Positions 2,353-29,440 of a DNA stretch of 64,000 nucleotides are shown piece after piece. The DNA is from an uncultured Methanomicrobiales archaeon (lineage in GTDB: Archaea; Halobacteriota; Methanomicrobia; Methanomicrobiales; Methanospirillaceae): positions 608,001 through 672,000 of the forward strand of contig OY969100.1 of the NCBI GenBank assembly GCA_963697895.1, written 5' to 3'. Below the pieces are notes generated by a model that was not told the DNA's origin, ran no database searches, and saw only the letters and a program-made list of their open reading frames with translations. The position numbers were made by a program, and so were the translations under genes. The first letter of the stretch is position 1; every line of letters begins with the position of its first letter.

Positions 2353-2652
2353 GAAGATCCCTGTCCATAATGGGTCAGGAATCCCCGAAATATCCGAGAT
2401 GTTCCGCCGGAAAAGACGTCCCGCCCCTGCGGTTTATGGGTCGGATCTTTTATCGGATGGGTTTAGGATATCCCTGATTTTGCCCAACTACTGGAGGGGC
2501 GCTATTAAGCACCTTTTTAACCGGCAGTTATCAATCCTATTCGTTAAAAAGCGGATTATATCGATATTTTTGAAGGCAGTGTTCAGGGTTTTCCCGACAT
2601 GATATGTTAATCTCTGCATTTTTGGAAAAATACAGTTAAAGAGGGGTTATTT
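2353..2652. repeat. Dispersed ~300-bp intergenic element, copy 1 of 5
   Basis: Blocks GAAGATCC / GGATCTTTTATCGGATGG / GATATCC / GGAGGGGCGCTATTAAGCACC / GGATTATATCGAT / GTGTTCAGG / GGAAAAATAC / GGGTTATTT are shared with four other loci. Confidence 0.9.
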
Positions 2653-2720
2653 CATGCGAATGGATCGACAAAAGAGGCGCATTGAAGTGAGAAAATAGGA
2701 AAGAGTAAAGAGGGATTGAT

Positions 2721-2927
2721 TTAAACGGATTTTGCCGCGAGCTCAACATCCTCTTTTTTAATCGTCTTTCGTCCTGCATGCATTGCATATTTATTGGCCT
2801 CTTTGGCCAGGGATGCAATGTAGTCTTCAGCCTTTGCCACGAGCGAGGCAGCTGCATCGTTACCGACGCGGTCTGCACCACTTTTCTTCGCAATTCGAAC
2901 AATTGCTGCAATAGGTAAATCTGCCAC
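2721..2927 (-). CDS. Archaeal histone (HMf-like), copy 1
   Basis: 68 aa; LPIA..RI.K.SGA.RV, HAGRKTIK.ED. GTG start with GAGGT RBS. Confidence 0.95.
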   Translation of the reverse strand: MADLPIAAIVRIAKKSGADRVGNDAAASLVAKAEDYIASLAKEANKYAMHAGRKTIKKEDVELAAKSV

Positions 2928-2960
2928 CTTGATTACCTCAACAGATAGTTATTTATATTC

Positions 2961-2979
2961 TATTTATATCTTCCTGTCA
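2961..2979 (-). promoter_or_regulatory. BRE/TATA promoter of histone copy 1
   Basis: Minus strand TGACAGGAAGATATAAATA, conserved upstream of both histone copies at the same distance from the start codon. Confidence 0.65.
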
Positions 2980-3345
2980 AATTCACGATGGATCCTGCCG
3001 AAACCGAATTTTGAGTTTCCGAAATGCCACCGGGGTCGATCGGATTTTATATTTTTAAGGAAATTCACCGGGTAGGAAGGACGAAGGAATTTCTGCAATT
3101 CTTTGGAATCAAGGACATCCAGGCTCATCCAGATAGATCCCGAATCGAAGAGGAATACGAGAACTCTTCCGAACCTCGATCATTTAAGTCCATTTGTCGA
3201 AGAAAAGACAGAGGGGCCGGATTTGAGATTACCCGACCGAATAAATCATATCGGTTTTTCAGACAGCAAGAAGGGGCCACAGGCAGGAAGTCAAAAAGTT
3301 CGCCCCTCCCCAGCCGCCTTAAATTTCAGGTATCTTGTCAGCATA

Positions 3346-4751
3346 TCAGAAGCCGGTATAATCCCGTCCATCCCATTTTGCCCGGCCCTTCAGGTACAGC
3401 CACCAGGCAGGCAGGAGGAGAAGAGGGGCACCCATGAGAAAGATAATGCCTGATGCGGCAATGCCGGCGAGAAACAGAGTCGGTATTCCCAGGAGAATCA
3501 TATAAAGGAGGAATACCTTCGCATTGTACAACATAACCCCGGGAGAGAGTCCCATGAGGTAAACGGTAACCGCGAGGGCATAGAAGGAGACAGATCCCCA
3601 GACCACGAGGACAAACAGGAGGTAGCTGCCGTATCCCGTTATCAGGGAAACTGTGATGAGCAGAATGGCAGGGATCACCTGGAGAACGGAGTAGGTTGCA
3701 GCCTTGCTGGTGATCAGGCGGGCAACCCCGAGCGGGAGGCAGCTGTAGACGCCGGGCGTGTCAAACTCGGTTATCCACGTGAACATGGTGGATGAGATGA
3801 TCCCGGTGATCAGGGCAAAAAAAACGATCAATCCTCCCTCGAACAGCATGCCTGAAAGGAGCGAGAGGAAGAACCAGATGATTCCGAGGGGAAGGAGAAA
3901 GGAAAAGAGTGTATGGCCTATTCCATTCCCGCTCCGGTACAGATCAAGGAAGTCCTTTGTGGTCAGGGGGGCTCGGGGAAGATCCGGAGGTCGCGGGAAA
4001 CCGGCGTGAAGAGATCCGGGTAACATTTTTCCGTATCATGATACTCGGTGGTGAAGAGGCCGAAGGCGAGGAGAAAGGGAATAAAAATCAGCAACAGGGA
4101 AAGAACCAGTACGAGGGGGGAGAATGCAGCATACACAAGGAGCGGGGGGAAGAAGAGCAGCGGATTGATCCCGGTCGCGGCCCAGGCGATAACCCAGACG
4201 ACAATTCCTATGACAACGAGAACTGCCAGGACCAGCCGGGAACGGGTGTAAATGACCGAAAGAAGAAAGATTACGGAAAGACCACAGAGAAACGAAAGAG
4301 TGATCGAGAATAGGAAGAGCAGGGAGCCTGAAACTGGGATCCCGAGGAATGGTGAGGCTACCATGAAGCCGGCACCGAAGGGAAGGATCCAGAGGATGAA
4401 ATAATAGATGATATCCTTGATCACGAAGTTGAGAAAGATGAACCTCTCCGTGAACGGAAGCGTGCGGCCCGAATAGGAGAGGAGACTCGCATGCCCGAAC
4501 CTCCGGTTCATGACTTCTTTTCCCAGTAATCCGAATCCCCCGACCATCATGCCCATGACGACAAACAGCGCGACGGTGACAGAAAGGACACTCCCCCCCG
4601 GGATTGCCGCTCTTATGAGCGGGAGGAGGAGAGCGCTCATGACGGAGGCGGCAAATATCAGGATCGGGAACAGGGCGAAACTGACACTCCCAAAAAGGGT
4701 GGAGTGCAGCCGCCATTCCTCCTTCAGCATTGCGAAGAAGAGATCAAGCAC
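3346..4751 (-). CDS. ABC-type exporter membrane subunit, split by one frameshift near 3975 (probable assembly error)
   Basis: Hydrophobic ORFs 3963-4889 and 3346-4026 join at ...RIFP / APLTTKDFLDLYRSG. GTG start at 4751 overlaps the ATPase stop. Confidence 0.75.
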
Positions 4752-5469
4752 CTGAACCGCCTGTGATAAGGGAGACAAAAAAGTCCTGAAGGTGCGTTCC
4801 GTTCTTACGCACCTCATCGATCGTTCCGCTGTACAGCAGATTTCCCCGGTGAAGGATGGCAATCTCAGAGCAGAGATCTTCCGCCACATCGAGGATGTGC
4901 GTTGAGAAGAATATGGTGTTGCCTGCGTGCACGTAATCCACGAGATATCTCTTCACCTTCTCCTGTACCAGGGGATCGAAATTGATCAACGGCTCATCGA
5001 TGACGGCAAGGACCGGGCGGTGGAGGAAGGCCTGGGCAAACATCAGTTTCTGCCGGGTCCCCCGGGAGAGGTCCTTGCAGAGCACATCCCTTTTTTCGGA
5101 GAAATCAAGGAAATCAAACCACCATGCGATCTGTTCGGCCGAATCGCCCAGGTTACGGACACTGCTCACAAAATGCAGATATTCTTTCGCGGTGAGAAAG
5201 CTCGGGGGTGATTCCTGTTCGGGGATAATGCCCACCCGCTCCCGCACCCGAATCGGATCCGTGGCAGGGTTGAAACCGAGAACCCGGGCCGAACCTCCCG
5301 TGGGCCGGATCTGACCGGTCAGCATTTTTATCATCGTGGTCTTGCCCGAACCATTGGGCCCCAGCAGGCCGAATAACGATCCTCTGGCGACTCCAATGCT
5401 GACCCCGTTCACCGCCCGGGTCTCTCCGTACTGCTTAGAAATTGTATCCGTGGCTATGACCTGTTCCAT
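4744..5469 (-). CDS. ABC transporter ATP-binding protein (ABC-2/multidrug type)
   Basis: GPNGSGKTT, LSRGTRQK, VIDEP, STH. Confidence 0.93.
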   Translation of the reverse strand: MEQVIATDTISKQYGETRAVNGVSIGVARGSLFGLLGPNGSGKTTMIKMLTGQIRPTGGSARVLGFNPATDPIRVRERVGIIPEQESPPSFLTAKEYLHFVSSVRNLGDSAEQIAWWFDFLDFSEKRDVLCKDLSRGTRQKLMFAQAFLHRPVLAVIDEPLINFDPLVQEKVKRYLVDYVHAGNTIFFSTHILDVAEDLCSEIAILHRGNLLYSGTIDEVRKNGTHLQDFFVSLITGGSGA

Positions 5470-5778
5470 GCTGCTCCTTCCTGTTGTTTATGCCAAAGGT
5501 CAGATGAACATTATTTTCACGTTCATGTACATTTTCGTAACGTATGAATTGGTGAGAACATGGAGAAAAATAATGTCATGCGTAAAATAAAATAAACAAT
5601 GGGGAGGATCAATACGCTCGAGAAAATTAGTGCGGGTGATCACGGCCCTTCTAAAATTACAATGGGCCGGTATTTTTCAAAATTTTAACGGGCCAAGTAG
5701 ACCCTGAACCCGCCTCTACAGAACTCTCCAGAGCCGCGTCGCATACCCTTTTCGTTGCCGGTGTCGAACAAGTCAGGA

Positions 5779-6588
5779 ATGATCCGTGAACGCTTCCCGG
5801 TAATCCTCGTACACGGGTGGAACAGCCACCCCGGGGTCTGGAAGAGACTGGTTCTCCGGCTCGAGGCACTTAAAATTCCCTGCCGGAACTTTGATCATAC
5901 GGGATTGTGCGATATGGCATTGCCGGAGATCTCCGGGGCACTCGGTGAATACCTGCGAGGAGTGCGGAACGAGAACGGCTGGTACGGGCCGGTCGATATC
6001 GTCTGCCATTCGATGGGGACATGCATCGTCCGGTACCTTCTTGAAGTGACAGACGGAACCGTACGAAGCCAGGCTGTCCGTCAGCTGATCGGCCTTGGAC
6101 CACCAAACAACGGCTCGGCACTTGCAGAACTCTTCAATGACCCGGTACGGGGTGAAGAGATCATCAACCGGCTCACCGGCGTCTTTGTCCCGCAGGGATT
6201 CGATCCGGTCTCCGACCGCATCGTTCAGGATGTACGACCGGGAAGCCCGGTCATGCGAACCCTTCGCACTGCCGGCTTACGACCAGACATCACCTACCGG
6301 ATAATCGTGACCACAAATCCCGAAGACATCCCCGGATTTTTCCCCTGGTTCGAGGGAAAGACCTGGGAGATTGACGGGGACGGAAGATACCGGGAGACCT
6401 TGGACGGGGACGGGGTGGTGCCGCACCGGGAGTCGGTTCTTCCGGGTATTTCTCTCGATATCCTGTCGGCATCCCATGAAAAGGAGGAGCATCTGCCGTC
6501 TCCTGAACGGTACTGCCATATCAACCTGCCGAAAAATCCCCTGGTCATCGACCGGATCATCCAGTATCTGACGAGTCAGGCGGGGTGA
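5779..6588 (+). CDS. Alpha/beta hydrolase (lipase/esterase-like)
   Basis: PVILVHGW oxyanion motif, VCHSMG nucleophile elbow, GPPNNGS, DGVVP, C-terminal His. Confidence 0.85.
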   Translation: MIRERFPVILVHGWNSHPGVWKRLVLRLEALKIPCRNFDHTGLCDMALPEISGALGEYLRGVRNENGWYGPVDIVCHSMGTCIVRYLLEVTDGTVRSQAVRQLIGLGPPNNGSALAELFNDPVRGEEIINRLTGVFVPQGFDPVSDRIVQDVRPGSPVMRTLRTAGLRPDITYRIIVTTNPEDIPGFFPWFEGKTWEIDGDGRYRETLDGDGVVPHRESVLPGISLDILSASHEKEEHLPSPERYCHINLPKNPLVIDRIIQYLTSQAG

Positions 6589-6819
6589 GGGATAAACACA
6601 CAAACGGATAAAAATTTTCTACAACTCCGTAACCCGCCGGATAAATTGCCAAAACGGTATGAAATCTCATAACCCGATACCCGAGGGCGAAACTGTTCGT
6701 TCAGCTTTTAAGCCAGTAAGCCTGCCCGCTGGTCGCTGCCTGTTGGATTACCCTTATCTGATGGGATGTTCTACCTTATCCTGATAATCAGGAGTATCTA
6801 CAATCCGGAAGGAAATAAC

Positions 6820-7188
6820 ATGAGAATACACGCGATCGTTTTAATCCTGTTCATTCTCGCACTATCCATCGGTTGCGCCACGGCCAGCGGCGTCCAGATG
6901 GGCAGCTACATGGACGTTACTTATGTCAACGTCGTGACCGACACCAGCCTCCGGAGCTTCCCGGCATCCGCGGACGTCCCGGCCGAGGCATCGTACTCGA
7001 TCCAGGCGAAAGGTGTCCTTGTGCAGACCCCGACGGGATTCGTCCTGCAGCCGGCAACCGGCTCGATCACCGCATTCATGAATGTTCACACGCCGGACCT
7101 TGTATACTCGGAGACAACCACGGCCAGCGGGTACATCGACAACTTCGTCAAGAACATGTATTACCAGGACGGGGCATTCCGTATCTGA
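6820..7188 (+). CDS. Secreted beta-rich hypothetical protein (possible sheath/cell-surface protein family)
   Basis: ATG at 6820, signal peptide MRIHAIVLILFILALSIGCATA, S/T/Y-rich beta-like mature part, biased codon usage. Confidence 0.75.
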   Translation: MRIHAIVLILFILALSIGCATASGVQMGSYMDVTYVNVVTDTSLRSFPASADVPAEASYSIQAKGVLVQTPTGFVLQPATGSITAFMNVHTPDLVYSETTTASGYIDNFVKNMYYQDGAFRI

Positions 7189-7298
7189 ATGGTATATGAA
7201 CAGAGAGAGGAACGGTATCGATCTTTCCTTTTTCTCCTCTTTTATCAGCTCATTACCGGCAATGGCGGGAAGTTCAGATCATTCGCATGGCATAACCC

Positions 7299-8141
7299 AT
7301 GAATAGAATCACAAAAATCATAACGGTCTCTCCAGTCTGGATAGGGACATCGGTTGCGGTCTCCGTGCTGGTAACAGCATCCAGTCTCTCTGGGATCCTG
7401 CGGGAAAATACCTATACCCAAGAGACCTATCGCCGGGCGCTTCAGTCGACCGTTCAGGATTATGTTACCTTCACCGTAGTGATACTGCTCCTGGTCAGCA
7501 CCTGTTTTGTTGCGAACCATTCAATCAGGGGATATCTCGTCTGGCTGGGGGCCTGCCTGTACCTTCTCTATTCGTTTATGATCTCCTCCTTTGCTCTCCC
7601 CTTCTCGTTCCTGTTCCTCATGTACGTCCTGATCATAGGTCTGTCATTTTACACGCTGGTCGGCGGGATGATGGCGGCTGACTGGGATACGATCGCACCC
7701 GTCCTGCGGGGAAATCCGGTGGCAAAAGCGGCCGGCGCCCTGCTTCTGGTTATCGGCGTCGTCTTCTCCCTTTTTTGGCTGTCAGAGATCATTCTGAATC
7801 TTCCTGCTGCCATGAATTCAATGGTACCTTCAGATATGCAGATCCCGGTCAGCCCGGTGCATTTCCTGTTCCTGTGCATCCTGCTTCCGGGGATCATCAT
7901 CACCGCAGTCTTACTCTGGAAAGAGAATCTCCTTGGCTATTTCATGGCGGTGCCGTTGCTCGTTTTTGCCGCAGCTGTGGCGCTGGGGATAATTGGTCTG
8001 GTTATCTCTTCCGCCATCCACCACCTGCCGTACTCGGTGCCGGTACTCGTAATATCCGGAATAATTCTGGTATTTAGTACGTGCTTCTCCTGCCTGTTCT
8101 TAAAAGAGGTGAAACAGGATGGGAAAACCATCCGGCCATAA
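7299..8141 (+). CDS. Multi-pass membrane protein of unknown function
   Basis: About 8 hydrophobic segments in 280 aa. Confidence 0.8.
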   Translation: MNRITKIITVSPVWIGTSVAVSVLVTASSLSGILRENTYTQETYRRALQSTVQDYVTFTVVILLLVSTCFVANHSIRGYLVWLGACLYLLYSFMISSFALPFSFLFLMYVLIIGLSFYTLVGGMMAADWDTIAPVLRGNPVAKAAGALLLVIGVVFSLFWLSEIILNLPAAMNSMVPSDMQIPVSPVHFLFLCILLPGIIITAVLLWKENLLGYFMAVPLLVFAAAVALGIIGLVISSAIHHLPYSVPVLVISGIILVFSTCFSCLFLKEVKQDGKTIRP

Positions 8142-8262
8142 GCAGGTAAACACCCTGGGATGCGTACAGAACCCTCATGAATCTCCCTACCTGCACGTTC
8201 CCGGGTTCGGGATTCAGCAACGAGCGGGAATTTGCCAGATATTAATCGATTGAAGGGTCAAA

Positions 8263-8595
8263 TCAGGTCCGATCGCCTGATGAAAACGACCTCATGCGAT
8301 CATCTTTGTGCTGGTGGTATTCCACCATTCTCCTCGCCTCTTCGACCGCATGCGGTATTTCCGGGATTCCGGTGAAGAGAATGCGTATCCCGTCGATATC
8401 ATCCTTGAGATAGGCAGCTTCAGGATAGAGCAGGAGGGTGATCTCCCCTTCCGGCCCGAAATGATGCTCCTCAACCTCTCCCCGCATATACCGTTCCCGC
8501 TGCTGCGTTGTCGGTGCAGCATATTTATTCTCGAATCTGAAGATACCCACGATACTTCCTGGCCTGTCTGGCCCGATATACGTGAGGGTCTCCAT
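8263..8595 (-). CDS. Hypothetical protein
   Basis: 110-aa ORF with globular composition; TTAAATA-like box upstream. Confidence 0.7.
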   Translation of the reverse strand: METLTYIGPDRPGSIVGIFRFENKYAAPTTQQRERYMRGEVEEHHFGPEGEITLLLYPEAAYLKDDIDGIRILFTGIPEIPHAVEEARRMVEYHQHKDDRMRSFSSGDRT

Positions 8596-8687
8596 CAGGC
8601 GTTATTTAAGGTATGGCGGGCGGGCTGAAAATGAATCATTAAGCCCGGGTCATGCGTCAGTATATAGCGTGCCGGGAGAGATCGAAC

Positions 8688-8855
8688 TTATCTCCTTTTT
8701 TTATTCCTCTGGTTAGCAGCGATTTTTTCTTTGGACGTCATCGGGGCAGGGGTGTCCCTGGCCCCGGGACTCTTCCCTTCTGATCCTGCGGGTGCTTTTA
8801 CATCAGTGCTCTCCGGCCTGCGGCTTGAACCTTTCCTGTTGCCCTGATCTTTCAT
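8688..8855 (-). CDS. Small basic disordered protein (55 aa; not in the ORF track)
   Basis: Manual translation: MKDQGNRKGSSRRPESTDVKAPAGSEGKSPGARDTPAPMTSKEKIAANQRNKKRR*. Resembles its neighbour at 9104-9256. Confidence 0.55.
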   Translation of the reverse strand: MKDQGNRKGSSRRPESTDVKAPAGSEGKSPGARDTPAPMTSKEKIAANQRNKKRR

Positions 8856-9103
8856 GATTACTCTTACGGTGCGTAATCACATAAACATGCTCTGAAAAAT
8901 AGCGAATTTAAACGGATGGAAAGCATATAATTCTCAATTTCACACTTGTTCCCCATAATTTATTCTGCTGGAGTATTATCCGGCCGCGGGTGTTTCAGAA
9001 AGACGAACGTGACCTAGATCCTCTGAAGAGGGCAGATCCCTGGAGCCGGGTAGATCTCGGGGACTTTCCGCGATTGGTGCCTTCGTGGGATCTTGTCCTC
9101 GGT

Positions 9104-9256
9104 TTATTTCTTTCTCTTCATCTTCGCCGCATTCTTATCCTTCAGGGAGTTGATCTTCTCCTTTGACAGGGTTTCTGCGGCCATGGATGGTGGAGGAGCT
9201 TTGGGATTATCCTTTGCCTTGTGGCCTTTTGCCTTTTGTTCGACCGGTTTTTTCAT
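9104..9256 (-). CDS. Small Lys-rich protein (50 aa)
   Basis: MKKPVEQKAKGHKAKDNPKAPPPSMAAETLSKEKINSLKDKNAAKMKRKK. TTTATAT TATA-like box about 25 nt upstream on the minus strand. Confidence 0.6.
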   Translation of the reverse strand: MKKPVEQKAKGHKAKDNPKAPPPSMAAETLSKEKINSLKDKNAAKMKRKK

Positions 9257-9380
9257 GAGAATACGTGAATAGCTGGAAATATAAACATGTGCTTTGGAAA
9301 TCGTGATATCAACCTGCATTTGATATTAATCACCGCTGACTGGAGACCTTTAAAAATTCACCTTCCATCATTGAGAGCAT

Positions 9381-9728
9381 TCAATCAGGATATATACTAT
9401 CATGTCCGGGGCGATGAGCAGTCTTTGGGGCTTTTTTTGGAGGGATGGGGGTCAGGTCAAAGATGTACGTGCAGGAAAGGCATCTAAGTTTTTCTTCTGA
9501 TTCATCTATCAGAATAATATTCATACTATGACATTCCGGGCAGGTTATTCCCTCCGTGCCATCTTGTTTTCTGTATCCCCGGTCTAAGACGATCATATCT
9601 TCGGCGCATATAGGGCAGATATACCCAATCGCTACATATTGAGTGGTTATTCCCCCATTTTTACGCTGAAAGATGCGTTCAAGAATTGAATCACAAACCG
9701 GGCATTTTTTTGTCGGATGGTTTTCCAT
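9381..9728 (-). CDS. Double zinc-ribbon protein
   Basis: Four CxxC pairs: CPVC, CPIC, CPEC, CLSC. Confidence 0.7.
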   Translation of the reverse strand: MENHPTKKCPVCDSILERIFQRKNGGITTQYVAIGYICPICAEDMIVLDRGYRKQDGTEGITCPECHSMNIILIDESEEKLRCLSCTYIFDLTPIPPKKAPKTAHRPGHDSIYPD

Positions 9729-9871
9729 AGCAGATATTATGCATTCATACTTTTTTTTCCTACGCCTTTATTGCATATGTTCATGGGCCGCGGAATATCA
9801 TCACCCCGGTTTATGAATAATTTTCTCTATTTTCTTATCATCAAGGACAAAAATGAATTATACAAAAAAAA

Positions 9872-11012: not shown

Positions 11013-11311
11013 GTAAGGTGCAGTCCCATGCCGTTTCAGGAAGTTACGGATCTCCGCGTCAATCTGCCCAAAAAGTCGCCCTGCCCATGCGATTCAGGGG
11101 CCGGATCTTTTATTGGATGGTTTCCGATATCCCAGATTTTGCCCAGGAGCTGGAGGGGCGCTGTTAAGCACCTTTTTTCCCGATAATTCTCGTTTTTTTC
11201 TGATAAAGAGTGGGTTATATCGATAATTTTGGACGCGGTGTTCAGGATTTATTTTGTAGCAGGATGACGATCCCGGTTTTATGGGGAAATACGCATAAAA
11301 TGGGGTTATTT
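11013..11311. repeat. Dispersed ~300-bp intergenic element, copy 2 of 5
   Basis: GGATCTTTTATTGGATGG / GATATCC / TGGAGGGGCGCTGTTAAGCACC / GGTTATATCGAT / GCGGTGTTCAGG / GAAATAC / GGGGTTATTT. Left end approximate. Confidence 0.9.
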
Positions 11312-11541
11312 TTGGACAAAGGGAGGGAGATTAACTGGGATCCAAGAAGAATTGTCCTTCTCATCACGATAAATGTGAATTAAGGAGATACATTATTCCC
11401 CATAAAATCTCCCCACGTGATGAATCCTACCAAAAATCCAATACCATGATCTGCCCGCCAGGGAGCAAGAAAATGAGTCGGGGACTATCGGATATATATG
11501 GCGGGCCTTAAAAAAATACACGGAAAATGATCGTTTGGCAC

Positions 11542-11934
11542 TCATCCCTCCTTTTTCATCGGTCCCCCATGGATCCGTACCAGATACATGCCGATTCCCA
11601 CCGGTATCAAGAATGTCAGGGCATAGTACACGAACACATCGGGGCCGTAATAGGTAGTCTGGAACAGGCGGACAATGAACAGGTAGTCGAGCACAACCGC
11701 GATCACAGTCCATGCCAGCCCGACTATTGCGTAATAGGTGAGGGGAAGGTTCCGTGCCCGAAACCACCACCAGGTAATCGCAATCGTGAATGGAGTGAAG
11801 ACGGCAGTGATGATCCAGCCCATGTTGCTCGCAAAAGGCGATAAGAACAGAAGAATCGATGCAAGGTACCCGAACGCCCAGAACAAAATGCCAAGCCCCA
11901 CTGTGTCTTTGATCCACTCCTTCATGCGAAACAT
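11542..11934 (-). CDS. Small 4-TM membrane protein
   Basis: 130 aa, four hydrophobic helices. Confidence 0.8.
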   Translation of the reverse strand: MFRMKEWIKDTVGLGILFWAFGYLASILLFLSPFASNMGWIITAVFTPFTIAITWWWFRARNLPLTYYAIVGLAWTVIAVVLDYLFIVRLFQTTYYGPDVFVYYALTFLIPVGIGMYLVRIHGGPMKKEG

Positions 11935-15501: not shown

Positions 15502-16326
15502 ATGCAACATATTCCCGGAGCACTCATCGTCTCTCTTACCGATCTGGGATTATCGAATTACGAGGCACGCACGTACGCCGCCCTCGTCCTTTTCGACGCA
15601 ACAGAGGTAAAAGAACTGGTTGATTTTCTCGGGATCTCCAAACCCAGCGTCTATGAAAGTCTTGACAGGCTTACGGAAATGGGCCTTGCGGTAAAGAGAA
15701 ATTCAAAACCCGCAATGTACAGCCCGATACAGCCGGAAATAGCGATTAAAATCCTGATGGAACGCCACACGAACTCCGCGGAGATCGCCCGAAGCGAACT
15801 CAGCAAACTGGAGCAGGAAAAGATTCACACGGATCGTTCCGATGCAGTCTGGACCGTATACGGGGATTCAAATATCAATCATAAAATACAGTCCATGATC
15901 CGCAATGCCCGGCATAGTATTGAATGCACCATGGCTGAGCGATACCTGCCGTTGCTGGAAGGGGTCAGGCTCAAAAAGATCGACCTGAAGCTGACTGTCC
16001 TTTCGGAAGACCCTGATCTGATCGATACGCTGAAACAACAGTTCCCTGGCAAGAACCGGGTTATTACCGTTCGTTCTATAAAAACAATCCTGGAACACCT
16101 CCCCCGCTATCCCGGGATCGGCGATATCGGGAATTTCATCAAACTGGAAAATATCCTGGAACTGATCGTCGACGATGAAGAACTTCTCTCCATACCCCCG
16201 ATTCCTTCCATCCATATGATGGGCATGAACACCTCGAATAAAGCGCTGATCCTGCATTCACAAGCGATGAGCAGAGGGTTCTGGGCGATGACATTACAGT
16301 CGGGGGACCCTGACAAACAGAAATAA
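15502..16326 (+). CDS. TrmB family transcriptional regulator
   Basis: LGLSNYEARTYAAL, wHTH ISKPSVYESLDRLTEMGL, VWTVYG, C-terminal effector domain LIVDDEE. Confidence 0.92.
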   Translation: MQHIPGALIVSLTDLGLSNYEARTYAALVLFDATEVKELVDFLGISKPSVYESLDRLTEMGLAVKRNSKPAMYSPIQPEIAIKILMERHTNSAEIARSELSKLEQEKIHTDRSDAVWTVYGDSNINHKIQSMIRNARHSIECTMAERYLPLLEGVRLKKIDLKLTVLSEDPDLIDTLKQQFPGKNRVITVRSIKTILEHLPRYPGIGDIGNFIKLENILELIVDDEELLSIPPIPSIHMMGMNTSNKALILHSQAMSRGFWAMTLQSGDPDKQK

Positions 16327-16505: not shown

Positions 16506-16802
16506 GAAGATCCTTCTCCATCCTGTGTCAGGAAACCTCGTATATTACCGAATTCGGCCCAAAAAGAAGCCCCGGCCCTGATGTTTGGGGGGCGGATCTT
16601 TTCCGGGATGGTTGCTGATATCCATCATTTTACCCGTGTGCCGGAGAGGCGCTGTTAAGCACCCTTTTAATGCGTAATTCTCACTCTTATTTTCGAAAGA
16701 GCAGATTATATCGATAATTTCAGAGGCGGTGTTCAGGATTTAGTTCGGAGGGGAATGGCGATGCCTGTTTCATGGAGAAATATGCTCAAACAGGGATTAT
16801 CT
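16506..16802. repeat. Dispersed ~300-bp intergenic element, copy 3 of 5
   Basis: GAAGATCC / GGATCTTTT / GATATCC / GGAGAGGCGCTGTTAAGCACC / GATTATATCGAT / GCGGTGTTCAGG / GAAATAT / GGGATTAT. Confidence 0.9.
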
Positions 16803-16843
16803 GGGGATGTTTAAAAGTACAGAAAGGAAAAAAAGAGATCGAT

Positions 16844-17050
16844 TCAGGCGGACTTTGCCGCGAGCTCGACATCCTCTTCCTTGATCGTCTTTCGTCCTGC
16901 ATGCATTGCAAGTTTATTGGCCCCTTTGGCCAGGTTTGCAATGTAGTCTTCTGCTTTCGATACCAGTGCAACAGCCGCTTCGCTTCCGACGCGTTCTGCA
17001 CCACTTTTCTTTGCAATTCGTACAACTGCAGCAATAGGTAATTCTGCCAC
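16844..17050 (-). CDS. Archaeal histone (HMf-like), copy 2
   Basis: 68 aa, 55/68 identical to copy 1 by manual comparison. Confidence 0.95.
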   Translation of the reverse strand: MAELPIAAVVRIAKKSGAERVGSEAAVALVSKAEDYIANLAKGANKLAMHAGRKTIKEEDVELAAKSA

Positions 17051-17083
17051 CTTGATTACCTCAACAAATAGTTATTTAAAGAG

Positions 17084-17102
17084 TATTTATAACTTCCTGT
17101 CA
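17084..17102 (-). promoter_or_regulatory. BRE/TATA promoter of histone copy 2
   Basis: Minus strand TGACAGGAAGTTATAAATA, homologous to 2961-2979. Confidence 0.65.
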
Positions 17103-17612
17103 AAAACGCGTTGGATCCGGCCGAAACACGAGTGATTTGCACCTATACCGGAATGCTGCCTGTTCGATTGAATTATTTTATTTTCATACACTCAGCAACG
17201 AGGGAGGATAGAAAGCCTGTATTATGCGGTTTTTCGCATTGTATCGGTTGACTTCCCGGACCGGGCAGAGAGACGAGACCCGGGAACATCCTGAACTGAT
17301 ACATGCACAACAGGCAGATTCGTTCATTGTCACCCACTCGCTGCAGCCTTCCGGGATTGGGAATACTCGCTGCCTGAACCAGTAAATAGTCCGCCTCCCG
17401 CGACAGAGTCGTTACCCCCTATAAATACGTGATGAAACGAATTCCCGGAAGGTCGGAATCGGTATTAAACCAGGATTTTATCCGGCCGAAGAAGAACCAC
17501 CATGACATCACATACCATCCTGTTCCACTCTCGAAGAACAATCAAGGGTTAAACGAGAACAGTATTAAGATCATCACGTGTATGGTTTCACAACAGAGAG
17601 CGAACGGGTGAC

Positions 17613-20611: not shown

Positions 20612-20834
20612 AAAGAAAACCAGGTGATTTAAAGACTCATTTAATAAAATTGGGTTAACGAAGGAGGATACATAACTTGTGCCTATGACAGGAGGCACCA
20701 AGGACACGACAGAGCGAGTGCATACAATAGGACGCAACAGGTGCAGGATATTCAAACGTGACAATATCCGTGCAAATTATGTATTGGGATAATATCCGTT
20801 AACTTGCACGATTAATCGGTATCCTCGCCCTGTG

Positions 20835-23177: not shown

Positions 23178-23273
23178 TCATGAGTCCCCTGCTGTATGTA
23201 TCGCTCGCGTTTTATCTTATTTGAGCACCATAGTATTCAGATTTAAATTTCCGCCCGGATGGGCGGCATTTAT

Positions 23274-24650
23274 CTAGGAGCGATCCCGACGCCGCCGCCA
23301 GAGCCAGTACCCGCTTCCCAGGATACCTACTGCTATAATGCCCAGGACAAGAGGATTTACCAGTATCGTCGCAATACCGGAATCTTTGACCACGGTTATC
23401 CGGAGTTTGAAGGGGTCGGATACCACGCTGTTGTCCAGGGCGTCCCTGAACCGTACCTCCGAATCAAGCCCGTATTCCTTTGGGGTCGCCGCTCCATCGA
23501 CAGAGATATCAAAGGACGCCTCCTTCGTCTCCCCCGGTGCGAGGGTGCCCAGATATGCGGTGTCATCACTGCTGGTGAACGGGTCGACGGCACTGATGCG
23601 GGCCTGGGCGCTGTAGACGGTGGCACCGCCGGTGTTCTGGTATTGAACGGTAATTATCTTTTTCTGGCCCGGCGAGACTTCAATAGGACCGGAAAGGACG
23701 GTAAATGCCACCTTTTCACCGACCGGAATTCCGATGGTCGTTGGGTCGGTATCGACCACATCTCCTTCCCCATTCTCGTAGTTGATGTATACATCAAGCG
23801 GATAGGTTTTGCTCTCGGCATCCTTGTTCACGGAGATCTTAAATTGAGTCGTTACCTCCGCCCCTTGCGGGAAATCACCGATATACGTGCTGCTGTCCGT
23901 CGGGATGACAGGGCTGTTGTCATTGCGGGCGATCTTCAGGATTGCTTTTTTCCCGTCTTCCTGCCCGGTGTTTTGTATCACGAGGTTCAGGTACCCTTCC
24001 GTTCCTGCATTCATATATTCTGTATCGGATGATATAATGGAGAACTGAAGTTCCTGCCTGATTTTGACCGGGAGCAGGAGCGTCTCATTCACTGTCCGGT
24101 ACATATACTGGATGCTGTCCGTCCCGTACTGATCTGCCTCCCACAGGTAGGTGTACCGGATGTTAAGGGGAAGATCATAGGTGCCGAATGTCGCATTCCG
24201 GGGGATTTTTACATCAAACTTCACCAGGGTGCTGCTTCCACCCGTGATGTCTCCTATCATCTGGGGATCGCTTTTTATGACGAGTGGGGAGTCTCCTGAA
24301 CCCAACGCCAGGGTTACCAGCTTGGCAGTATTCGGCAGGTCATCCCGGTCGATTATACCTGACTGGACGAATTTAAATTCGTTGAGTCCGTTATTCTGGA
24401 GCCGCACCGAGATGACCGCATCGTCGCCCGGCACGAATTCATTCGTTCCCGAGACGGCTGCAGTAGACTCGGGTGAGCCGGCCATGTATTTTACACCGGC
24501 ACTTGCGGGGGAGATCACGATGAATGCAAGTACGATCGAGATGAGGATTCCGAACCCCAAAAGTCTGTACCGTGAACCTGGTCTGGTGTTGCCGGGAAAT
24601 AAAGTCTGATTGAGGGCATTTGATCCCGTTGTTTTCTCTTTTCTGAACAT
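23274..24650 (-). CDS. COG1361-type S-layer domain protein
   Basis: Signal peptide, Ig-like repeats (IGDI, YIGDF, AYLGTLAPGE), C-terminal TM plus RRRR; co-oriented with the RND gene. Confidence 0.88.
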   Translation of the reverse strand: MFRKEKTTGSNALNQTLFPGNTRPGSRYRLLGFGILISIVLAFIVISPASAGVKYMAGSPESTAAVSGTNEFVPGDDAVISVRLQNNGLNEFKFVQSGIIDRDDLPNTAKLVTLALGSGDSPLVIKSDPQMIGDITGGSSTLVKFDVKIPRNATFGTYDLPLNIRYTYLWEADQYGTDSIQYMYRTVNETLLLPVKIRQELQFSIISSDTEYMNAGTEGYLNLVIQNTGQEDGKKAILKIARNDNSPVIPTDSSTYIGDFPQGAEVTTQFKISVNKDAESKTYPLDVYINYENGEGDVVDTDPTTIGIPVGEKVAFTVLSGPIEVSPGQKKIITVQYQNTGGATVYSAQARISAVDPFTSSDDTAYLGTLAPGETKEASFDISVDGAATPKEYGLDSEVRFRDALDNSVVSDPFKLRITVVKDSGIATILVNPLVLGIIAVGILGSGYWLWRRRRDRS

Positions 24651-24666
24651 CTTTGCATCCTCTTGG

Positions 24667-24688
24667 AGTAATAAAAATTTTTACTACT
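24667..24688. promoter_or_regulatory. Palindromic operator C upstream of S-layer/RND operon
   Basis: AGTAATAAA-AATT-TTTACTACT, same consensus as 15393 and 15463. Confidence 0.55.
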
Positions 24689-24785
24689 AATGTATCTACC
24701 CATGTTTGCTGGGAACTTTAAAAAAAGTATCTGTGGTTAAAGTAAAAGTTATCAATCTGATCAGGATGGAGATGAGGATCTTACT

Positions 24786-25080
24786 GAAGATCCTTTTCGT
24801 GCTGCGCCAGGAACCCTGTATCTCCCCGAAAACGGCCCCAAAAGACGCCTCGCCCCTGTGGTATCGGGGGTATATCTTTTATCGGATGGTCTGCGATATC
24901 CCCGATTTTATCCTCGTGCTGAAGGGGCGCTATTTAGCACGTTTTTGGGCGGCGATTATCGTTTATTTTCGTTAAAGGGCGGATTGTATCGATGATTTTG
25001 AGGGCGGTGTTCAGGGGTTTTCTGAGAGGGGGATAGAGACTCCATATTTTCGGGAAAATACGCCCGAATCTGGGTTATTT
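24786..25080. repeat. Dispersed ~300-bp intergenic element, copy 4 of 5
   Basis: GAAGATCC / ATCTTTTATCGGATGG / GATATCC / GGGGCGCTATTTAGCACG / GGATTGTATCGAT / GCGGTGTTCAGG / GGAAAATAC / GGGTTATTT. Its right end coincides with the start of AT-rich DNA. Confidence 0.9.
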
Positions 25081-25211
25081 GGATATAATAAGAGCAATAT
25101 CTATTAAGAAGTGAGGGTTCCTATTAAAGCTGTTTAGAAGTTTTTTGTTGAAGAAGAAGAGGAAAATCGTACAAAATAAAATAATAAATGCGATGATATT
25201 ACATTCTTATG

Positions 25212-25712
25212 TCATTTACTCTTTCCGTTTGTTGATTTTAATAAGTTATTCAGTTCTTTTTCTATTATTTCATCAGTTACTCCATATTGCCTTTCCAAAT
25301 TACGACATATTTCTGTGAGTTGAGTGTCAACACTTTCAAGTGATAAATTTATTTCTTCAAGTTCTTCTACCATAAATTCTCGTCCATCTTCAGTATTCAT
25401 CTGGATTGCTCGATCCCAAAAATAATGATGTGTAAGCCAATTTCTTTTGTCCAAAGCTTCTCGTATTGTTACTTCAAATTTATCGGAAATCTCTATTTTT
25501 TGGGTTAAATGTTTAATTAAATGACCTAATGTTTTATGGAAATAAGAATTTAGTAAAATATCATATGAGAGGTGAATCTCTTTGTCGCGTTCTTGAAAAT
25601 CTAATATTATTAAAAGAATCCCCAGCTGACGTTCAATACATTGGTTAAAATAGATTGCACTACCGAATAGAGCATAAATTTCTTTTATTTCCTCTTCAAC
25701 ATGGGAATTCAT
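25212..25712 (-). CDS. Helical HEPN-like protein
   Basis: TLGHLI followed by LDKRNWLTHHYF (RxxxxH RNase motif). Confidence 0.7.
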   Translation of the reverse strand: MNSHVEEEIKEIYALFGSAIYFNQCIERQLGILLIILDFQERDKEIHLSYDILLNSYFHKTLGHLIKHLTQKIEISDKFEVTIREALDKRNWLTHHYFWDRAIQMNTEDGREFMVEELEEINLSLESVDTQLTEICRNLERQYGVTDEIIEKELNNLLKSTNGKSK

Positions 25713-25910
25713 GAATATTAGAGTATTATGGCAGACTAATATTTTTTTGGGTGATGCTTACTTATGGGATTCATATCTTAATCGAAACGAACCCGTCTGT
25801 ATTATTTCACCAATCGAAAGTAAGTTTAGGGTATTATTGATTGGCAAGATCTGATCCATTTTTTTCTCAACCTGAATTCTTTTGTAAATACGAGATTACA
25901 TTTTGTTTAT

Positions 25911-27575
25911 TCATCTCGATCGTAGTTTGTCAATTGTTTTTTTGATTTCTTTCGGGATACAGTTTGTTTTAATCATTTCCTTTGCAACATACTTTCCTAT
26001 TCGGGGTTTACTATTACCAACTACTTTTTGAGCATCTTGCCGGAGGGTTTCTGGAAGGATTGCCTCAAAGTCTTGTTTTAAAATATAAGTTTTTTCTCTC
26101 CGATATTTGATTGGAATTTTTCTTAATTCTTCTTCTGCATCGCCATCTGCAAGCATTAAATATGGAATTTGAAAACTCTCACACAATTGTGCAAAAATGG
26201 AAAAGTTCGATTTTCCATTTACGTTTATAATACTGATTCCATTTTCATCAAATGGATACCACAATTTTTTTGCAAAAATAGGGATTGCTCCATACTCAGT
26301 TGGTCCCTCAACAAGCAAAACTTTTCGAGCAAAAAACAATTCTCTACTATCAACATCTAATAAATGTTCAAATTTTAAATAATCAATATCATTGAAAAAT
26401 TTATCCGGCAATGTAAAGATTTTTGTTTGAGCATTTTCCTGAACGAATCTAAATATTTTATGGGTCTTATCAATCTTTATAAAATAGGGTGAGTGAGTTA
26501 TGAGTATTATTTGCATATCTTTAGATTCATCGATAACTGCTGCCAAACTTCGCGCCGCATGAGGATGCAAATGGAGCTCCGGATGATCTACAATGATTAT
26601 CTTTCCCTTATGTGCGATTATATGCGTTATCAGGAGTAAGGATTCCAATATCCCTGCACCAATAAAATACGTTGTCGATTCCACACCGGATTTTTGTGTA
26701 TGGATTTTAATTTCATCATTTTCTTTTATGACATCTAATTCGAGATTTGAGAATATTTTGTGAAATTTTTCTCGTATCTTTTCAAATTTTTGTTTGTCTT
26801 TGGGGCGTCCGTTTTTTAAATTAAATAAGATGCTTGCTAGACTTCCGCCTGTTGGCGACACCAATGACGGATTCAATTCTTGATCGGGTTTTTCACGATA
26901 CTCATCGATAGAAATAATATTTTCCTTTAGAAAATTAAGAAACAATTTAGGAATGGGTTTTTCAAATAAGATTTGGACAGATGATATATCAATTTTTGAT
27001 GCGATTCGATCCTCCTCCAATTTTTTAGATTCTTCCCACTTCAAAAAAAATAGATCTCTAATTGATTTTTCGAATGATTCAATTCTTCCAAGATTAACTA
27101 ATTCTCTCCAAATAACACCATACTGAGCTTTGACGACTTCCGCATCACCTACAGTACCAGAGTTATTTATTATACGCATTTTTCCGAGAATAAAATGCGA
27201 GTCTGGTCGATCCGTTGGAGTCTTAATCAATATCTTATAAAATAATTGATTAGAGAATAATTTTTTAAATTCTTCATTTGATACGTTTATCGGCTCAAAA
27301 AAGGTTTTAATCTTAGATATTTCGTCATCGTTAAAAAGAATATTTAAGGAAAATTCAATGGTCTTGTTTTGATCGCTTTTATACCAATTTTCAGCATCCC
27401 ATGGAATTGACGAATCGACATCCAAATTTATCATCATTTTAATTGCTTCAAAAATGGATGATTTTCCTACATTGTTTTCCCCAATAAAAATTGTAGAGCC
27501 TAAGGGTAATGAAAATTCCAGTCCTTTCTCCCCAATCGATCGAAAATTTTTAATGAATATCTTTTGTATTTGCAT
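25911..27575 (-). CDS. OLD-family ATP-dependent endonuclease (ABC-ATPase + TOPRIM)
   Basis: IKNFRSI, GENNVGKS, IIVDHPELHLHP, ITHSP, LFFARKVLLVEGPTE, LADGD, SKPRIG. Confidence 0.9.
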   Translation of the reverse strand: MQIQKIFIKNFRSIGEKGLEFSLPLGSTIFIGENNVGKSSIFEAIKMMINLDVDSSIPWDAENWYKSDQNKTIEFSLNILFNDDEISKIKTFFEPINVSNEEFKKLFSNQLFYKILIKTPTDRPDSHFILGKMRIINNSGTVGDAEVVKAQYGVIWRELVNLGRIESFEKSIRDLFFLKWEESKKLEEDRIASKIDISSVQILFEKPIPKLFLNFLKENIISIDEYREKPDQELNPSLVSPTGGSLASILFNLKNGRPKDKQKFEKIREKFHKIFSNLELDVIKENDEIKIHTQKSGVESTTYFIGAGILESLLLITHIIAHKGKIIIVDHPELHLHPHAARSLAAVIDESKDMQIILITHSPYFIKIDKTHKIFRFVQENAQTKIFTLPDKFFNDIDYLKFEHLLDVDSRELFFARKVLLVEGPTEYGAIPIFAKKLWYPFDENGISIINVNGKSNFSIFAQLCESFQIPYLMLADGDAEEELRKIPIKYRREKTYILKQDFEAILPETLRQDAQKVVGNSKPRIGKYVAKEMIKTNCIPKEIKKTIDKLRSR

Positions 27576-27749
27576 TAAACGTCGTTTCCCTGTTCAGTTA
27601 TTGCTTCGTCATTCCTTATTTTTATTTGCCTGCCTGGACTGTCGCCATCCGATAGCAATTGTATTTGTAGAACACCATTTTACAAAAGAATCAGAAATAC
27701 ATTAAATAATAAAAAAATGGATAGAAATGATAAATAATGAAAGTTATCG

Positions 27750-29024
27750 GTGATTTTGATGGGGGTTAAACGTGATGATTTAGTAAAGGAACTATTATCT
27801 ACCTTGGAATTTAGTGCGAAAGGTGTAATAATCAAAGGAGCTGAAAATGTAGCATCATATCAAATACTGTCGAATTCTCTAATGTCTGAATTAATTAGGG
27901 ATGGTTATGATGGAAAATTAAATAGAATTCGTTACAAACTACCAGTACCTCGGGGATCTAATATTTCTTTTCCCTTTATATCTTCTTTGAGAAAGTTGCA
28001 TGAAAGTGGCAATCAATCTTATTCTCATCTTAAGGGTTTAATTGATGAGGAAATCTCACAAATCGAAGTTAATGTTCCTATTGAAAAATTCTCTATTTAT
28101 TTTCAAATTGGAGTTACTTTCGATACAAAATTAAAACCGGTAATAATTCAGGACACTTCATTCAATATTTTACAGTTCCAAGATCTTGAACAATTAATGA
28201 AAGATCCAGAATTAATAAGCAAAACAGCAGAAATTATGAAGTCAGAAGGATTCGATATCATCTTTAAGGACTTTTCATATCTGTTTACGGAAATCTATGC
28301 AAGAAATGAAGATTATGCAATTGCACATACTCTTGAAAATGCAAATTCATTAGTATCAATTTTAACATATCAGAAATATTGGAATCAAGAATCAATCACT
28401 GCTTTAGGAATTCCTTCTTCGTATACAAATTTAGATATAAATGCGATTTTCGTTTTTAAAGATTCGAAGTTCATTAATATTCATTATACACCCTCTACTT
28501 CAAAAATGACCAACATATCATTTAACAACAGTGAAATTAAAAAAATAGAGGAATTTAATAATAGATTACAAAATGCTCATGACAAAAATAAAGATATTAT
28601 CCTTCAAGCTTTGAATGTTTATCATATAGGTCTAACCGAAGAACGCATGGGGATCGCTCTTTTTAATTTCTGGGTTGCCATTGAGAAGATATGCCTTAAA
28701 AATGAAAGCATAACGGAAAATGAAGTTAAAAAACGTGTCTCCACCTTTTTAAATCCTGATGATGAATACCCATTAGACCGACTTTATGAACTTCGGAATC
28801 AAATTGCGCATCACTCTGCTTATGAATTGGTAAATCAATATGATCGAAATTTAATAAAGCTAATATCTGGTATCTCAATTCATTTCTTTTTAATATATTT
28901 GGCACAATTTCATCCACAGGAAATACAAAAAATATTTGTTTTTTTAAAGGATGATAATTCTCAACTTATTAGAGATAAAGAATATATTGATTATATTTTA
29001 AAAATTAGAAAAAACCATCGATAA
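27750..29024 (+). CDS. ApeA-like HEPN domain protein
   Basis: C-terminal LFNFWVAIEKI ... LYELRNQIAHH pattern. Start may be the ATG at 27759. Confidence 0.72.
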   Translation: MILMGVKRDDLVKELLSTLEFSAKGVIIKGAENVASYQILSNSLMSELIRDGYDGKLNRIRYKLPVPRGSNISFPFISSLRKLHESGNQSYSHLKGLIDEEISQIEVNVPIEKFSIYFQIGVTFDTKLKPVIIQDTSFNILQFQDLEQLMKDPELISKTAEIMKSEGFDIIFKDFSYLFTEIYARNEDYAIAHTLENANSLVSILTYQKYWNQESITALGIPSSYTNLDINAIFVFKDSKFINIHYTPSTSKMTNISFNNSEIKKIEEFNNRLQNAHDKNKDIILQALNVYHIGLTEERMGIALFNFWVAIEKICLKNESITENEVKKRVSTFLNPDDEYPLDRLYELRNQIAHHSAYELVNQYDRNLIKLISGISIHFFLIYLAQFHPQEIQKIFVFLKDDNSQLIRDKEYIDYILKIRKNHR

Positions 29025-29190
29025 AAAGTTTTCTTTTGCGATTAATATTATTCAAAATTGAGTATGTTGTTAGAAAGATGTCTCGAAGTAATAAAGGGCA
29101 GGCATGTCATTTTTTATTCATATTTAATGGAGCATAAAAATATTGGATTATACATAAATAATACGTATAAACGGGATCATTCGGATTATC

Positions 29191-29440
29191 CCGAATCGGC
29201 CTAAACAATCCTTCTTTGCGGTTTTGGAGGCCGTAATTTTTATCGGATGTTCTATGATATTCCTGATTTCACCCTCGTGCTGGAGGAGCGCTAGTAAGCA
29301 CCTTTTTAGGCAGCGATTGTCATTCTTTTTGGTTAAAGGAAGGATTATATCGTTGATTTTGAGAGCGTGTTCAGGGGTTTCCGGGTAGAGGCAAGGTAAT
29401 ACCCATTTTTTGGAAAAATACGGTGAAAAAAGCATTTCGG
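29191..29440. repeat. Dispersed intergenic element, copy 5 of 5 (ends eroded)
   Basis: TTTTATCGGATG / GATATTCC / TGGAGGAGCGCTAGTAAGCACC / GGATTATATCG / GTGTTCAGG / GGAAAAATAC. A GC-richer patch embedded in AT-rich DNA. Confidence 0.85.

Follow-up and report, generated by a model that had tools for sequence, protein, structure and literature searches.

What are five similar stretches of non-coding DNA, all facing the same way, doing between the genes of an archaeal accessory region? The question is raised by a window of 64,000 nucleotides (positions 608,001 to 672,000 of the forward strand of contig OY969100.1, assembly GCA_963697895.1) from an uncultured Methanomicrobiales archaeon of the Methanospirillaceae; positions given below are those of the window unless genome coordinates are indicated. 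A sequence-only reading of this DNA had described the copies as an unannotated element of about 300 bp that tolerates substitutions better than indels, and had proposed either a helically phased nucleoprotein site or a structured RNA. To that picture we add eleven more copies in the same genome, a spread throughout the taxonomic family and, in other genera, a nuclease-fold gene to which the element is tightly linked. What emerges is an element that is old, family-wide, syntenic, helix-phased and genetically tied to an uncharacterised family of nuclease-fold proteins, and we tentatively favour its interpretation as a DNA-level, protein-wrapped cassette of gene ends, whose promoter-like core would face the 3' end of a neighbouring gene.

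The five window copies lie on the plus strand, at 2353..2652 (copy 1, aligned core 2373-2652), 11013..11311 (copy 2, aligned core 11034-11311), 16506..16802 (copy 3, aligned core 16526-16802), 24786..25080 (copy 4, aligned core 24805-25080) and 29172..29440 (copy 5, the shortest and most gapped, with a diverged left part). Their presence at these places was confirmed by alignment (about 300 bp alignable, with a mean column identity of 70%), by profile search, and by a repeat finder which recovered them independently as D1 (four copies, 254 nt) and D2 (five copies, 130 nt). The profile built from the five retrieved them with E = 3e-93 to 4e-75 from the single-contig genome of this organism (2,091,725 bp, or 2.09 Mb; G000), and chance is therefore excluded. 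The rigid internal spacing claimed for them also survived a letter-by-letter check: counted from the starts of the central dyad (2498, 11157, 16648, 24926 and 29287), GATAT stands at -31 and TATCG at +61 in all five, and TGTTCAGG at +82 and AAATA at +130 in copies 1-4, the latter two offsets being one base smaller in copy 5. Within the window, the profile search agrees with the earlier observation that no copy lies to the right of tRNA-Glu (31700-31775).

Across the whole genome, the five-copy profile located 11 copies outside the window, giving a total of 16, and another profile, made from 56 copies taken from many genomes, returned the identical 16 places. Further single copies, all on the minus strand, are found at genome coordinates 735026-735302, 1609606-1609880, 1356439-1356716, 243629-243906 and 467424-467700, and tandem pairs at 72395/72698 (plus strand, period 303), 1485193/1485496 (minus strand, period 303) and 1839669/1840069 (plus strand, period 400). 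The 16 copies measure 267-280 bp and fill an alignment of 282 columns. They are strongly diverged, with pairwise identities of 33-72% (mean 49%), and none of the 120 pairs is near-identical, the top identity being 72%. The window copies are 64-72% identical to one another, which argues for a local, co-oriented amplification. Despite this wealth of substitutions, gap columns are mostly confined to the first 43, with only three single-base ones in columns 107-278, so that the proposed tolerance of substitutions and scarcity of indels extends to the full set.

How far does the family reach? A blastn search of 40 relatives with copy 2 found nothing outside G000, and profile searches were therefore needed. 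Of 101 genomes in 19 genera of the taxonomic family, a sequence-only covariance model (R1) built from the 16 copies detected the element in 46 genomes and 14 genera (G000 counted), and some of these genomes hold a dozen or more matches. In an order-wide sample it was present in 13/22 genomes of its own family, against 1/20, 0/12, 2/22, 0/22 and 2/22 in five other families. Many copies are also held in place: syntenic copies occur between species of one genus in several cases (L030/L032/L042 with L099; L019/L036; L022/L037; L017/L018; L025/L027). In two further species of that genus, synteny is lost about 80-120 bp to the left of the element site and the element was not found there. A separate situation is seen in genus g18 (L017, L018, L051; L107-L112), where the element sits inside repeats of at least 1.8 kb that are 80-85% identical and lie on short contigs, 120-140 bp upstream of co-oriented UDP-glucose/GDP-mannose dehydrogenase genes.

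The anatomy of the element is that of a series of short blocks in a set order. Reading along the plus strand, block A (GCTATTAAGCACC) is followed by a T-run, a T-rich box, the TATA-like block B (GATTATATCG), block C (GTGTTCA(GG)), about 38 bp of variable sequence, block D (GGAAAATACGCCC) and block E (GGGGTTATTT), and the left part of the G000 copies contains a GATC-containing box. Copy 1 has block A at 2501-2513 with the T-run after it, B at 2554-2563, C as GTGTTCAGG at 2579-2587, D as an A-run with TACG at about 2623-2634, and E at 2643-2652. Blocks A, B and C fall at 11160-11172, 11213-11222 and 11238-11246 in copy 2, at 16651-16663, 16704-16713 and 16729-16737 in copy 3, at 24929-24941, 24982-24991 and 25007-25015 in copy 4 (where D, GAAAATACG, follows at 25054-25062 and E ends at 25080), and at 29290-29302, 29343-29352 and 29367-29375 in copy 5, which has one base fewer between B and C. 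Variation in block B is confined to A/T-rich, TATA-like strings, and the GTGTTCA of block C, about 24 bp past block B, is invariant among the G000 copies. Copies of other genera keep the same 277 columns and the same spacing with partly different words: their core is a chain of short A/T-rich palindromes (GTTTTA..TAAAAC, TATTTTT..AAAAATA, CGATTTAATCG) that ends in GTGGACA.C.TTTCC-N3-GGA(A/G).

Two properties of the element stand out, the conservation of its core and its phasing. In a syntenic alignment of three species (A5), the 108 columns from block A to TTTCCACTGGA contain 0 gap columns and are 68% invariant, compared with 33% and 18% invariance, and 9 and 45 gap columns, in the two flanks. 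What is most constrained is therefore the AT-rich core, including the first ~20 bases past the putative transcript start at block C, and not the putative transcript itself. As for phasing, the peak power of WW dinucleotides (W, A or T) at 10-10.5 bp averaged 15.2 in the G000 copies and 10.6 in foreign copies, against 4.9 (95th percentile 9.6) in 3000 GC-matched windows of the genome. The averaged spectra had peaks of 6.6 at 10.5 bp and 6.9 at 10.0 bp, the controls giving 2.1-2.2; the phasing of A/T is thus about three times stronger than that of GC-matched sequence. The proposal of a helically phased nucleoprotein site fits these figures.

The other half of that proposal, a structured RNA, fared poorly. 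RNAalifold predicted 3 pairs on the plus strand and 4 on the minus strand with 0 compensatory changes; single-sequence folds shared no common shape, any hairpin beyond a GCT/AGC pairing in block A not being conserved; and a mutual-information scan of 56 copies, with average-product correction, yielded subfamily signals only and no stacked Watson-Crick covariation. Rfam returned 0 matches at E <= 1 for six loci (18,441 bases), and tRNA-Glu only when the window was searched at the gathering threshold. Nor is there a gene: as the sequence-only reading had it, no coding frame is common to the copies, the longest run of codon columns with <10% stops being 31 among the 56 aligned. Blocks that are conserved while the stretches between them vary at a fixed length might point to an RNA scaffold, and dispersed copies to a transposon, but we regard a structured RNA spanning the element, or a dead transposon in neutral decay, as highly improbable. 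Neutral decay sits badly with a 3' 170 bp that is almost free of indels and with the contrast in gap columns between syntenic core and flanks, and the synteny of copies across several species, together with their near-invariant core, shows that this is no freshly decayed transposon, in line with the earlier view. The best reading, though a tentative one, is that the element is a DNA-level cis-module, neither an RNA fold nor a gene.

In other genera, the element has a recurrent neighbour: an unnamed family of proteins of 147-170 aa, here called X. It belongs to no family in PADLOC or NCBIfam (both at E <= 0.1) or in Pfam, and its homologues are 'hypothetical' in every source that names them, under the source names Methanoregula and Methanomicrobiales, which fits the order guessed in the sequence-only reading. 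An AlphaFold (AF2) model of X (predicted local distance difference test score, pLDDT, of 77) was matched by Foldseek to the SPARDA DREN domain (E = 5.9e-5), to the archaeal Holliday-junction resolvases Hjc/Hje (1ob8, 1gef, 2wiw) and to I-Ssp6803I, with a modest query-normalised template-modelling score of about 0.4, and the nearest named protein-atlas clusters are Hjc/Mrr_cat (score 0.93). As judged from this model, X is a protein of the PD-(D/E)xK (restriction-endonuclease-like) fold, similar to Hjc/Mrr. Its alignment shows an invariant D (of FD) and an invariant K-K; the acidic residue two positions before the lysine is not conserved, and nuclease activity or catalysis is uncertain for this reason.

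The link between X and the element is tight. X was found in 22 of 101 genomes and 5 of 19 genera, and all five genera also bear the element. Linkage was assessed on 25 X matches of at least 100 bits with loci returned, plus five weaker ones. At 22 of the 25 strong loci, X is followed immediately on its 3' side by an element on the opposite strand, the gap to the end of the profile match being 5-155 bp; the remaining three are a gene truncated at a contig end, one whose element is 1327 bp away, and a fragment of X. Of the five weaker matches, one is arranged in this way too, two have their element on the 5' side at a distance of more than 1.1 kb, and two have none. No conserved partner gene stands upstream of X, only syntenic host genes (a PAS histidine kinase and a DUF6790 protein). 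In full-text literature searches, outside subscription journals and supplements, no account of either the element or X was found, and the absence of both an Rfam match and a published account bears out the earlier impression that this is no described element.

Some X loci have peculiarities of their own. An in-frame stop interrupts eight of the listed X matches: a single TGA in G089:C18, G061:C31, G075:C18, G086:C1, G086:C4, G107:C6 and G093:C1, and a TAA in G100:C1:717743. The seven with TGA come from two genera and have an open frame of about 90-180 aa, most of 128-134; they may represent a shared pseudogene lineage or a recoding site. At G004:C1:1853967-1857953 (L091, L121, L135), two element-X units and a third X form an array with DUF5615 and PIN toxin-antitoxin genes in between, and this array adjoins a glycan-synthesis island and archaeal pilin genes.

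How might such a cassette work? The reading that we would put first, though tentatively, is that of a module bent or wrapped by proteins, with general transcription factors at the TATA-like box and sequence-specific proteins at the invariant blocks. Its right end would face the 3' end of a convergent gene, incoming transcripts would be halted by T-runs on both strands, and the TATA-like box, some 24 bp upstream of the invariant GTGTTCA, would start a short transcript back towards the tail of that gene. In related genera, the cassette is the fixed tail-to-tail partner of X, which it may restrain, or which may use it as a target, and the five copies of the window are solo members, lacking X, of a local amplification. 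At 8-9 of the 13 G000 loci, a convergent gene does have its 3' end turned to the right end of the element, with gaps of 34-132 bp; the element may also control neighbouring genes. Promoter activity is plausible from the placement of the blocks: in a position weight matrix (PWM) for the B recognition element and TATA box, trained on the upstream regions of 46 tRNAs of G000, the best matches fall on blocks B and A, and block B scores like the median tRNA promoter.

Several observations weigh against this reading and should be considered together. The same PWM does not discriminate: its best scores in the element, 8.8 on the plus strand and 8.5 on the minus strand, barely exceed the 7.9 that is the median of GC-matched windows, and the palindromic box gives the same score whichever way it is read. 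A simple promoter or terminator would not need a near-invariant core of about 110 bp. At 4 of the 13 G000 loci, among them both 303-bp tandem pairs, the right neighbour is co-oriented; for the tandem pairs, these neighbours (genes for a PKD protein and a UDP-GlcNAc 2-epimerase) lie 376-435 bp downstream. The neighbouring genes were called as open reading frames (ORFs), without a gene finder. The P-values for periodicity overstate independence because the copies are homologous, although the effect is large nonetheless. Finally, G000 retains 16 copies, yet its only trace of X is a weak, X-like remnant (42.6 bits, genome 69721-70029) with no element beside it. No role tied to X can thus account for the copies in the window, and the conservation of 16 copies in a genome with no intact X requires an X-independent role or another means of persistence.

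The convergent geometry raises the question of whether the element is the gene of a cis-antisense small RNA, in the style of a type I antitoxin. Here, an RNA of about 75 nt, running from block C to the T-run of block E, would pair with the 3' end of the convergent mRNA, forming a toxin/antisense pair with a potentially toxic X, and solo copies would be orphan antitoxins or regulators of other genes. Type I toxin-antitoxin systems with convergent antisense RNAs are known from Bacillus subtilis (txpA/RatA, bsrG/SR4), and the present pair resembles them in having a protein gene and a promoter-bearing (here predicted) non-coding unit set tail to tail with a short or zero gap, in having orphan partners, and in its toxin-antitoxin-rich neighbourhood, with HicAB, PIN and DUF5615 genes around the elements. 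At 8 of the 11 loci with a match extending to model position 272 or beyond, the X stop codon lies 5-37 bp past block E, in a fixed, convergent geometry; the TATA-like box stands about 24 bp upstream of GTGTTCA; X has no conserved protein partner upstream; and many X copies contain in-frame stops. On the other hand, no part of the syntenic copies is less conserved than the putative transcript, its folding energies are ordinary and it has no conserved structure, and the strongest conservation covers 110 bp upstream of the putative RNA start instead of the RNA. Known type I toxins are small hydrophobic peptides, and X is by contrast a soluble, nuclease-fold protein of ~150 aa and not a small membrane peptide. 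The 16 copies kept by G000 without an intact X add to this, and we consider an antisense gene unlikely.

Could the pair instead be selfish? X might be a homing-type or transposase-like nuclease that recognises the element, such that X and element together would be autonomous, and solo elements would be targets or non-autonomous relics. X is flanked by the element on one side and in one orientation at 22 of the 25 loci; elements far outnumber X (at least 12 versus 4 in G004, 16 versus one remnant in G000); the X-bearing genera are a subset of the element-bearing ones; and the eight interrupted matches recall the decay cycle of homing genes. In addition, elements occur in variable islands and next to a synteny break, and those of one genus lie within repeats of at least 1.8 kb on short contigs. 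The fold matches of X include I-Ssp6803I (PDB 2ost), a PD-(D/E)xK homing endonuclease, which is likewise a small restriction-fold protein; fixed place and orientation beside a multi-copy sequence and frequent pseudogenes complete the likeness. X differs in having no intron or intein context, and in its motif, where the catalytic acid is not conserved and K-K is invariant instead. Set against a selfish origin are the age of the copies within G000 and the lack of near-identical pairs, the synteny of many copies between species, and the absence of matches in viral, phage and plasmid collections.

The ends of the element speak to the same issue. No general terminal repeats or target duplications were seen, in a search that was not exhaustive; the candidate terminal motif TTTTGSCAAAA is confined to one syntenic group, and a perfect 10-bp terminal inverted match, AAATAACCCC ... 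GGGGTTATTT, to one subfamily (L017, weaker in L018 and L051). Empty-site comparisons did not give exact element ends. Distant blastn searches of plasmid and phage collections gave no match, and a pattern from the foreign consensus gave 0 matches in the viral collection; a gapped pattern from the G000 consensus gave four single matches in bacterial records and one in viral contigs, which we take as chance. The element is like miniature inverted-repeat transposable elements or solo insertion-sequence ends in being short, non-coding, multi-copy, sometimes tandem and enriched in accessory regions, and unlike them in that its copies are old and often syntenic, and its conservation central rather than terminal. 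Overall, we judge a selfish two-part element to be unlikely.

Another parallel is found in the repetitive extragenic palindromes (REPs) and bacterial interspersed mosaic elements (BIMEs) of Proteobacteria. These 20-40-bp hairpin palindromes, as REPINs, form REPtrons with RAYTs (REP-associated tyrosine transposases), HUH/Y1 enzymes flanked by the repeats on both sides. In both cases a dispersed intergenic repeat outnumbers a repeat-flanked gene for a single-domain protein of nuclease or transposase fold, and the repeats are found at gene ends and in convergent regions. The archaeal element differs in being about 280 bp long and helically phased, in having no conserved hairpin, in standing on one side only (3', convergent), and in having a partner of PD-(D/E)xK fold. 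By analogy, its logic resembles that of known pairs of dispersed repeat and nuclease gene; its form, in this combination of features, matches none of them.

What would follow if the cassette and X do form a system? It is possible, though doubtful, that we are looking at a two-part archaeal system of a kind not seen before, in which an Hjc/Mrr-fold protein is paired with a phased platform of about 280 bp that it reads or that restrains it, and whose X-less platforms have been domesticated by the host as sequence-specific boundary elements of chromatin or transcription at gene ends. If so, this would be the first homologous, fixed-length 'insulator' family in Archaea. That the element is a new kind of archaeal cis-element we rate with similar doubt. 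Dispersed non-coding repeat families of defined architecture are well known in bacteria (REP/BIME, enterobacterial repetitive intergenic consensus (ERIC) sequences, REPINs), and to our knowledge have barely been described in methanogens. If the solo copies are boundary or gene-end elements, they offer a handle on chromosome punctuation in histone-bearing archaea; a selfish pair would instead represent an archaeal mobile or addiction module of a new class. In either case there are testable handles: a 110-bp core, a predicted transcript start and end, and a protein X with a known DNA partner.

The dyads of the foreign copies invite one more comparison, with archaeal replication origins. Could the element be an origin-like module bound by Orc1/Cdc6, with dyads resembling origin recognition boxes (ORBs) around an AT-rich region that would unwind? 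Other-genera copies carry TTTCC-N3-GGA(A/G), in some exactly TTCCACTGGAA, which is the reverse complement of the Pyrococcus mini-ORB TTCCAGTGGAA quoted in PMC1904270; the same paper quotes TTCCAGTGGAACT, with conserved motifs TTCC and GAA, for the mini-ORB. As in the ORB/mini-ORB arrangement of oriC in that text, TTCC-N3-GGAA dyads flank an AT- and A-tract-rich stretch at fixed spacing in these copies, a second TTCCAG..GG box lying ~170 bp to the left, and the true oriC ORBs of the taxonomic family read TTCCAGTGGAA..GGGGT. The dyad is, on the other hand, absent from all 16 G000 copies, those of the window included, with GTGTTCAGG in its place. The G-string of a full ORB is missing, no cdc6 adjoins the element (the two G000 cdc6 genes, at 1.709 and 2.074 Mb, are away from every copy), genomes hold up to a dozen or more copies, the element blocks are absent from the oriC region, and TTCC-N3-GGAA is a simple palindrome with 99 matches genome-wide. 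Such an origin-like role is very improbable. The classical oriC of G000 adjoins cdc6 at genome 1710.6-1711.4 kb (L094:280-1110), where an AT-rich stretch lies between the inverted ORBs TTCCAGTGGAAGCCATGGGGT (perfect 21-bp arms, 580 bp apart) and GACCCCTTTATTTCCTGTGGAAA.

Turning to the genes around the copies, no common function was found among the neighbours at the loci examined. They include ABC/MacB transporters, CARDB and PKD surface proteins, MMPL, a TrmB-family regulator, an OLD/GajA-like ATPase, histones, Ku, TMEM175, and glycan-synthesis genes, besides the toxin-antitoxin genes already mentioned. The claim that every window copy lies just downstream of a minus-strand gene stands for four of the five; for copy 2 it does not, as the right-hand ORF (11393-11917) looks spurious. 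To the right of copy 1, a minus-strand gene for a 68-aa archaeal histone (2721..2927) has its stop codon 68 bp away, convergent with the element, and a second 68-aa paralogue (16844..17050, minus strand) is similarly placed 41 bp to the right of copy 3. To the right of copy 4, at 132 bp, is the 3' end of a minus-strand ORF for a 166-aa all-helical protein (25212..25712) with no Pfam or PADLOC family, and to the right of copy 5, at 34 bp, that of a minus-strand gene for a 165-aa membrane protein of the 8xMP family (29472..29969).

Do the histone neighbours betray a chromosome-architecture site? The element would then serve histones, or a nucleoid protein that may be TrmBL2-like, as a positioned and wrapped platform, acting for instance as a roadblock to SMC (structural maintenance of chromosomes) complexes or as a domain boundary. 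The WW phasing over ~280 bp and the roughly 16 dispersed sites per genome are in keeping with this, as are the histone genes abutting copies 1 and 3. In Thermococcus kodakarensis, TrmBL2-bound, A-tract-rich intergenic sites localise Smc-ScpAB at tens of loci, according to PMC11840125, and like the present element these are dispersed, AT-rich and intergenic, with DNA shape mattering; that text does not present them as a fixed-length family of homologous repeats. A plus-strand gene for a 274-aa TrmB-family regulator (15502-16323), of TrmBL2-like length, ends 200 bp to the left of copy 3; among its solved relatives TrmBL2 scores best (E = 1.2e-6), with TrmB close behind (1.8e-5).

These neighbours do not generalise. 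The two window histones, which are 82% identical and among five histone genes in G000, lie inside a 300-bp duplication (D3, 2699-2998 / 16822-17121, 83% identical), and histone adjacency as a general rule was rejected: it holds for 2 of 16 copies, has that one duplication as its source, and is seen at 0 of 29 foreign loci. The TrmB-family gene is not a recurrent neighbour elsewhere either. Moreover, the invariant blocks demand a sequence-specific reader beyond bendability, and an architectural role leaves the tight link to X unexplained. We find a chromosome-architecture site quite unlikely, and return to the gene-end cassette as the most economical, if tentative, reading.

Other candidate identities were tried and set aside. 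A crude k-mer scan for a CRISPR leader found no array in the genome and none adjoining any copy. A tRNA-derived att repeat would have to build on matches to tRNA-Glu of only 9-10 nt, at the level of chance. The variable 38-nt stretches of the 16 copies, considered as guide RNAs, have no second site in the genome beyond chance matches of 14-15 nt. An integron attC or tyrosine-recombinase site was rejected on the basis of a single PF00589 match (genome 31974-32432) for 16 elements, serine recombinases not having been searched, and the counts of PF00589 and of the element showed no correlation across the 101 genomes. The single match in G000 also weakens the recombination platform proposed in the sequence-only reading.

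The window contains some further features in their own right. Upstream of the 166-aa helical ORF lies a minus-strand gene for an OLD/GajA-like ATPase-TOPRIM protein (25911-27575; PADLOC GajA, E = 1.6e-41), and the ORF itself carries an R-x4-H string (RNWLTH); these two genes, between copies 4 and 5, may be a defence pair. To the right of the tRNA, a 27-bp unit, ATCCCGGAGATCCTTCATACCTCTTCC, is repeated in five tandem copies at 36963-37124, three of them identical, and a 57-nt direct repeat occurs three times at 46485-46696, with a spacing of 77-78 bp and identities of 61-89%.

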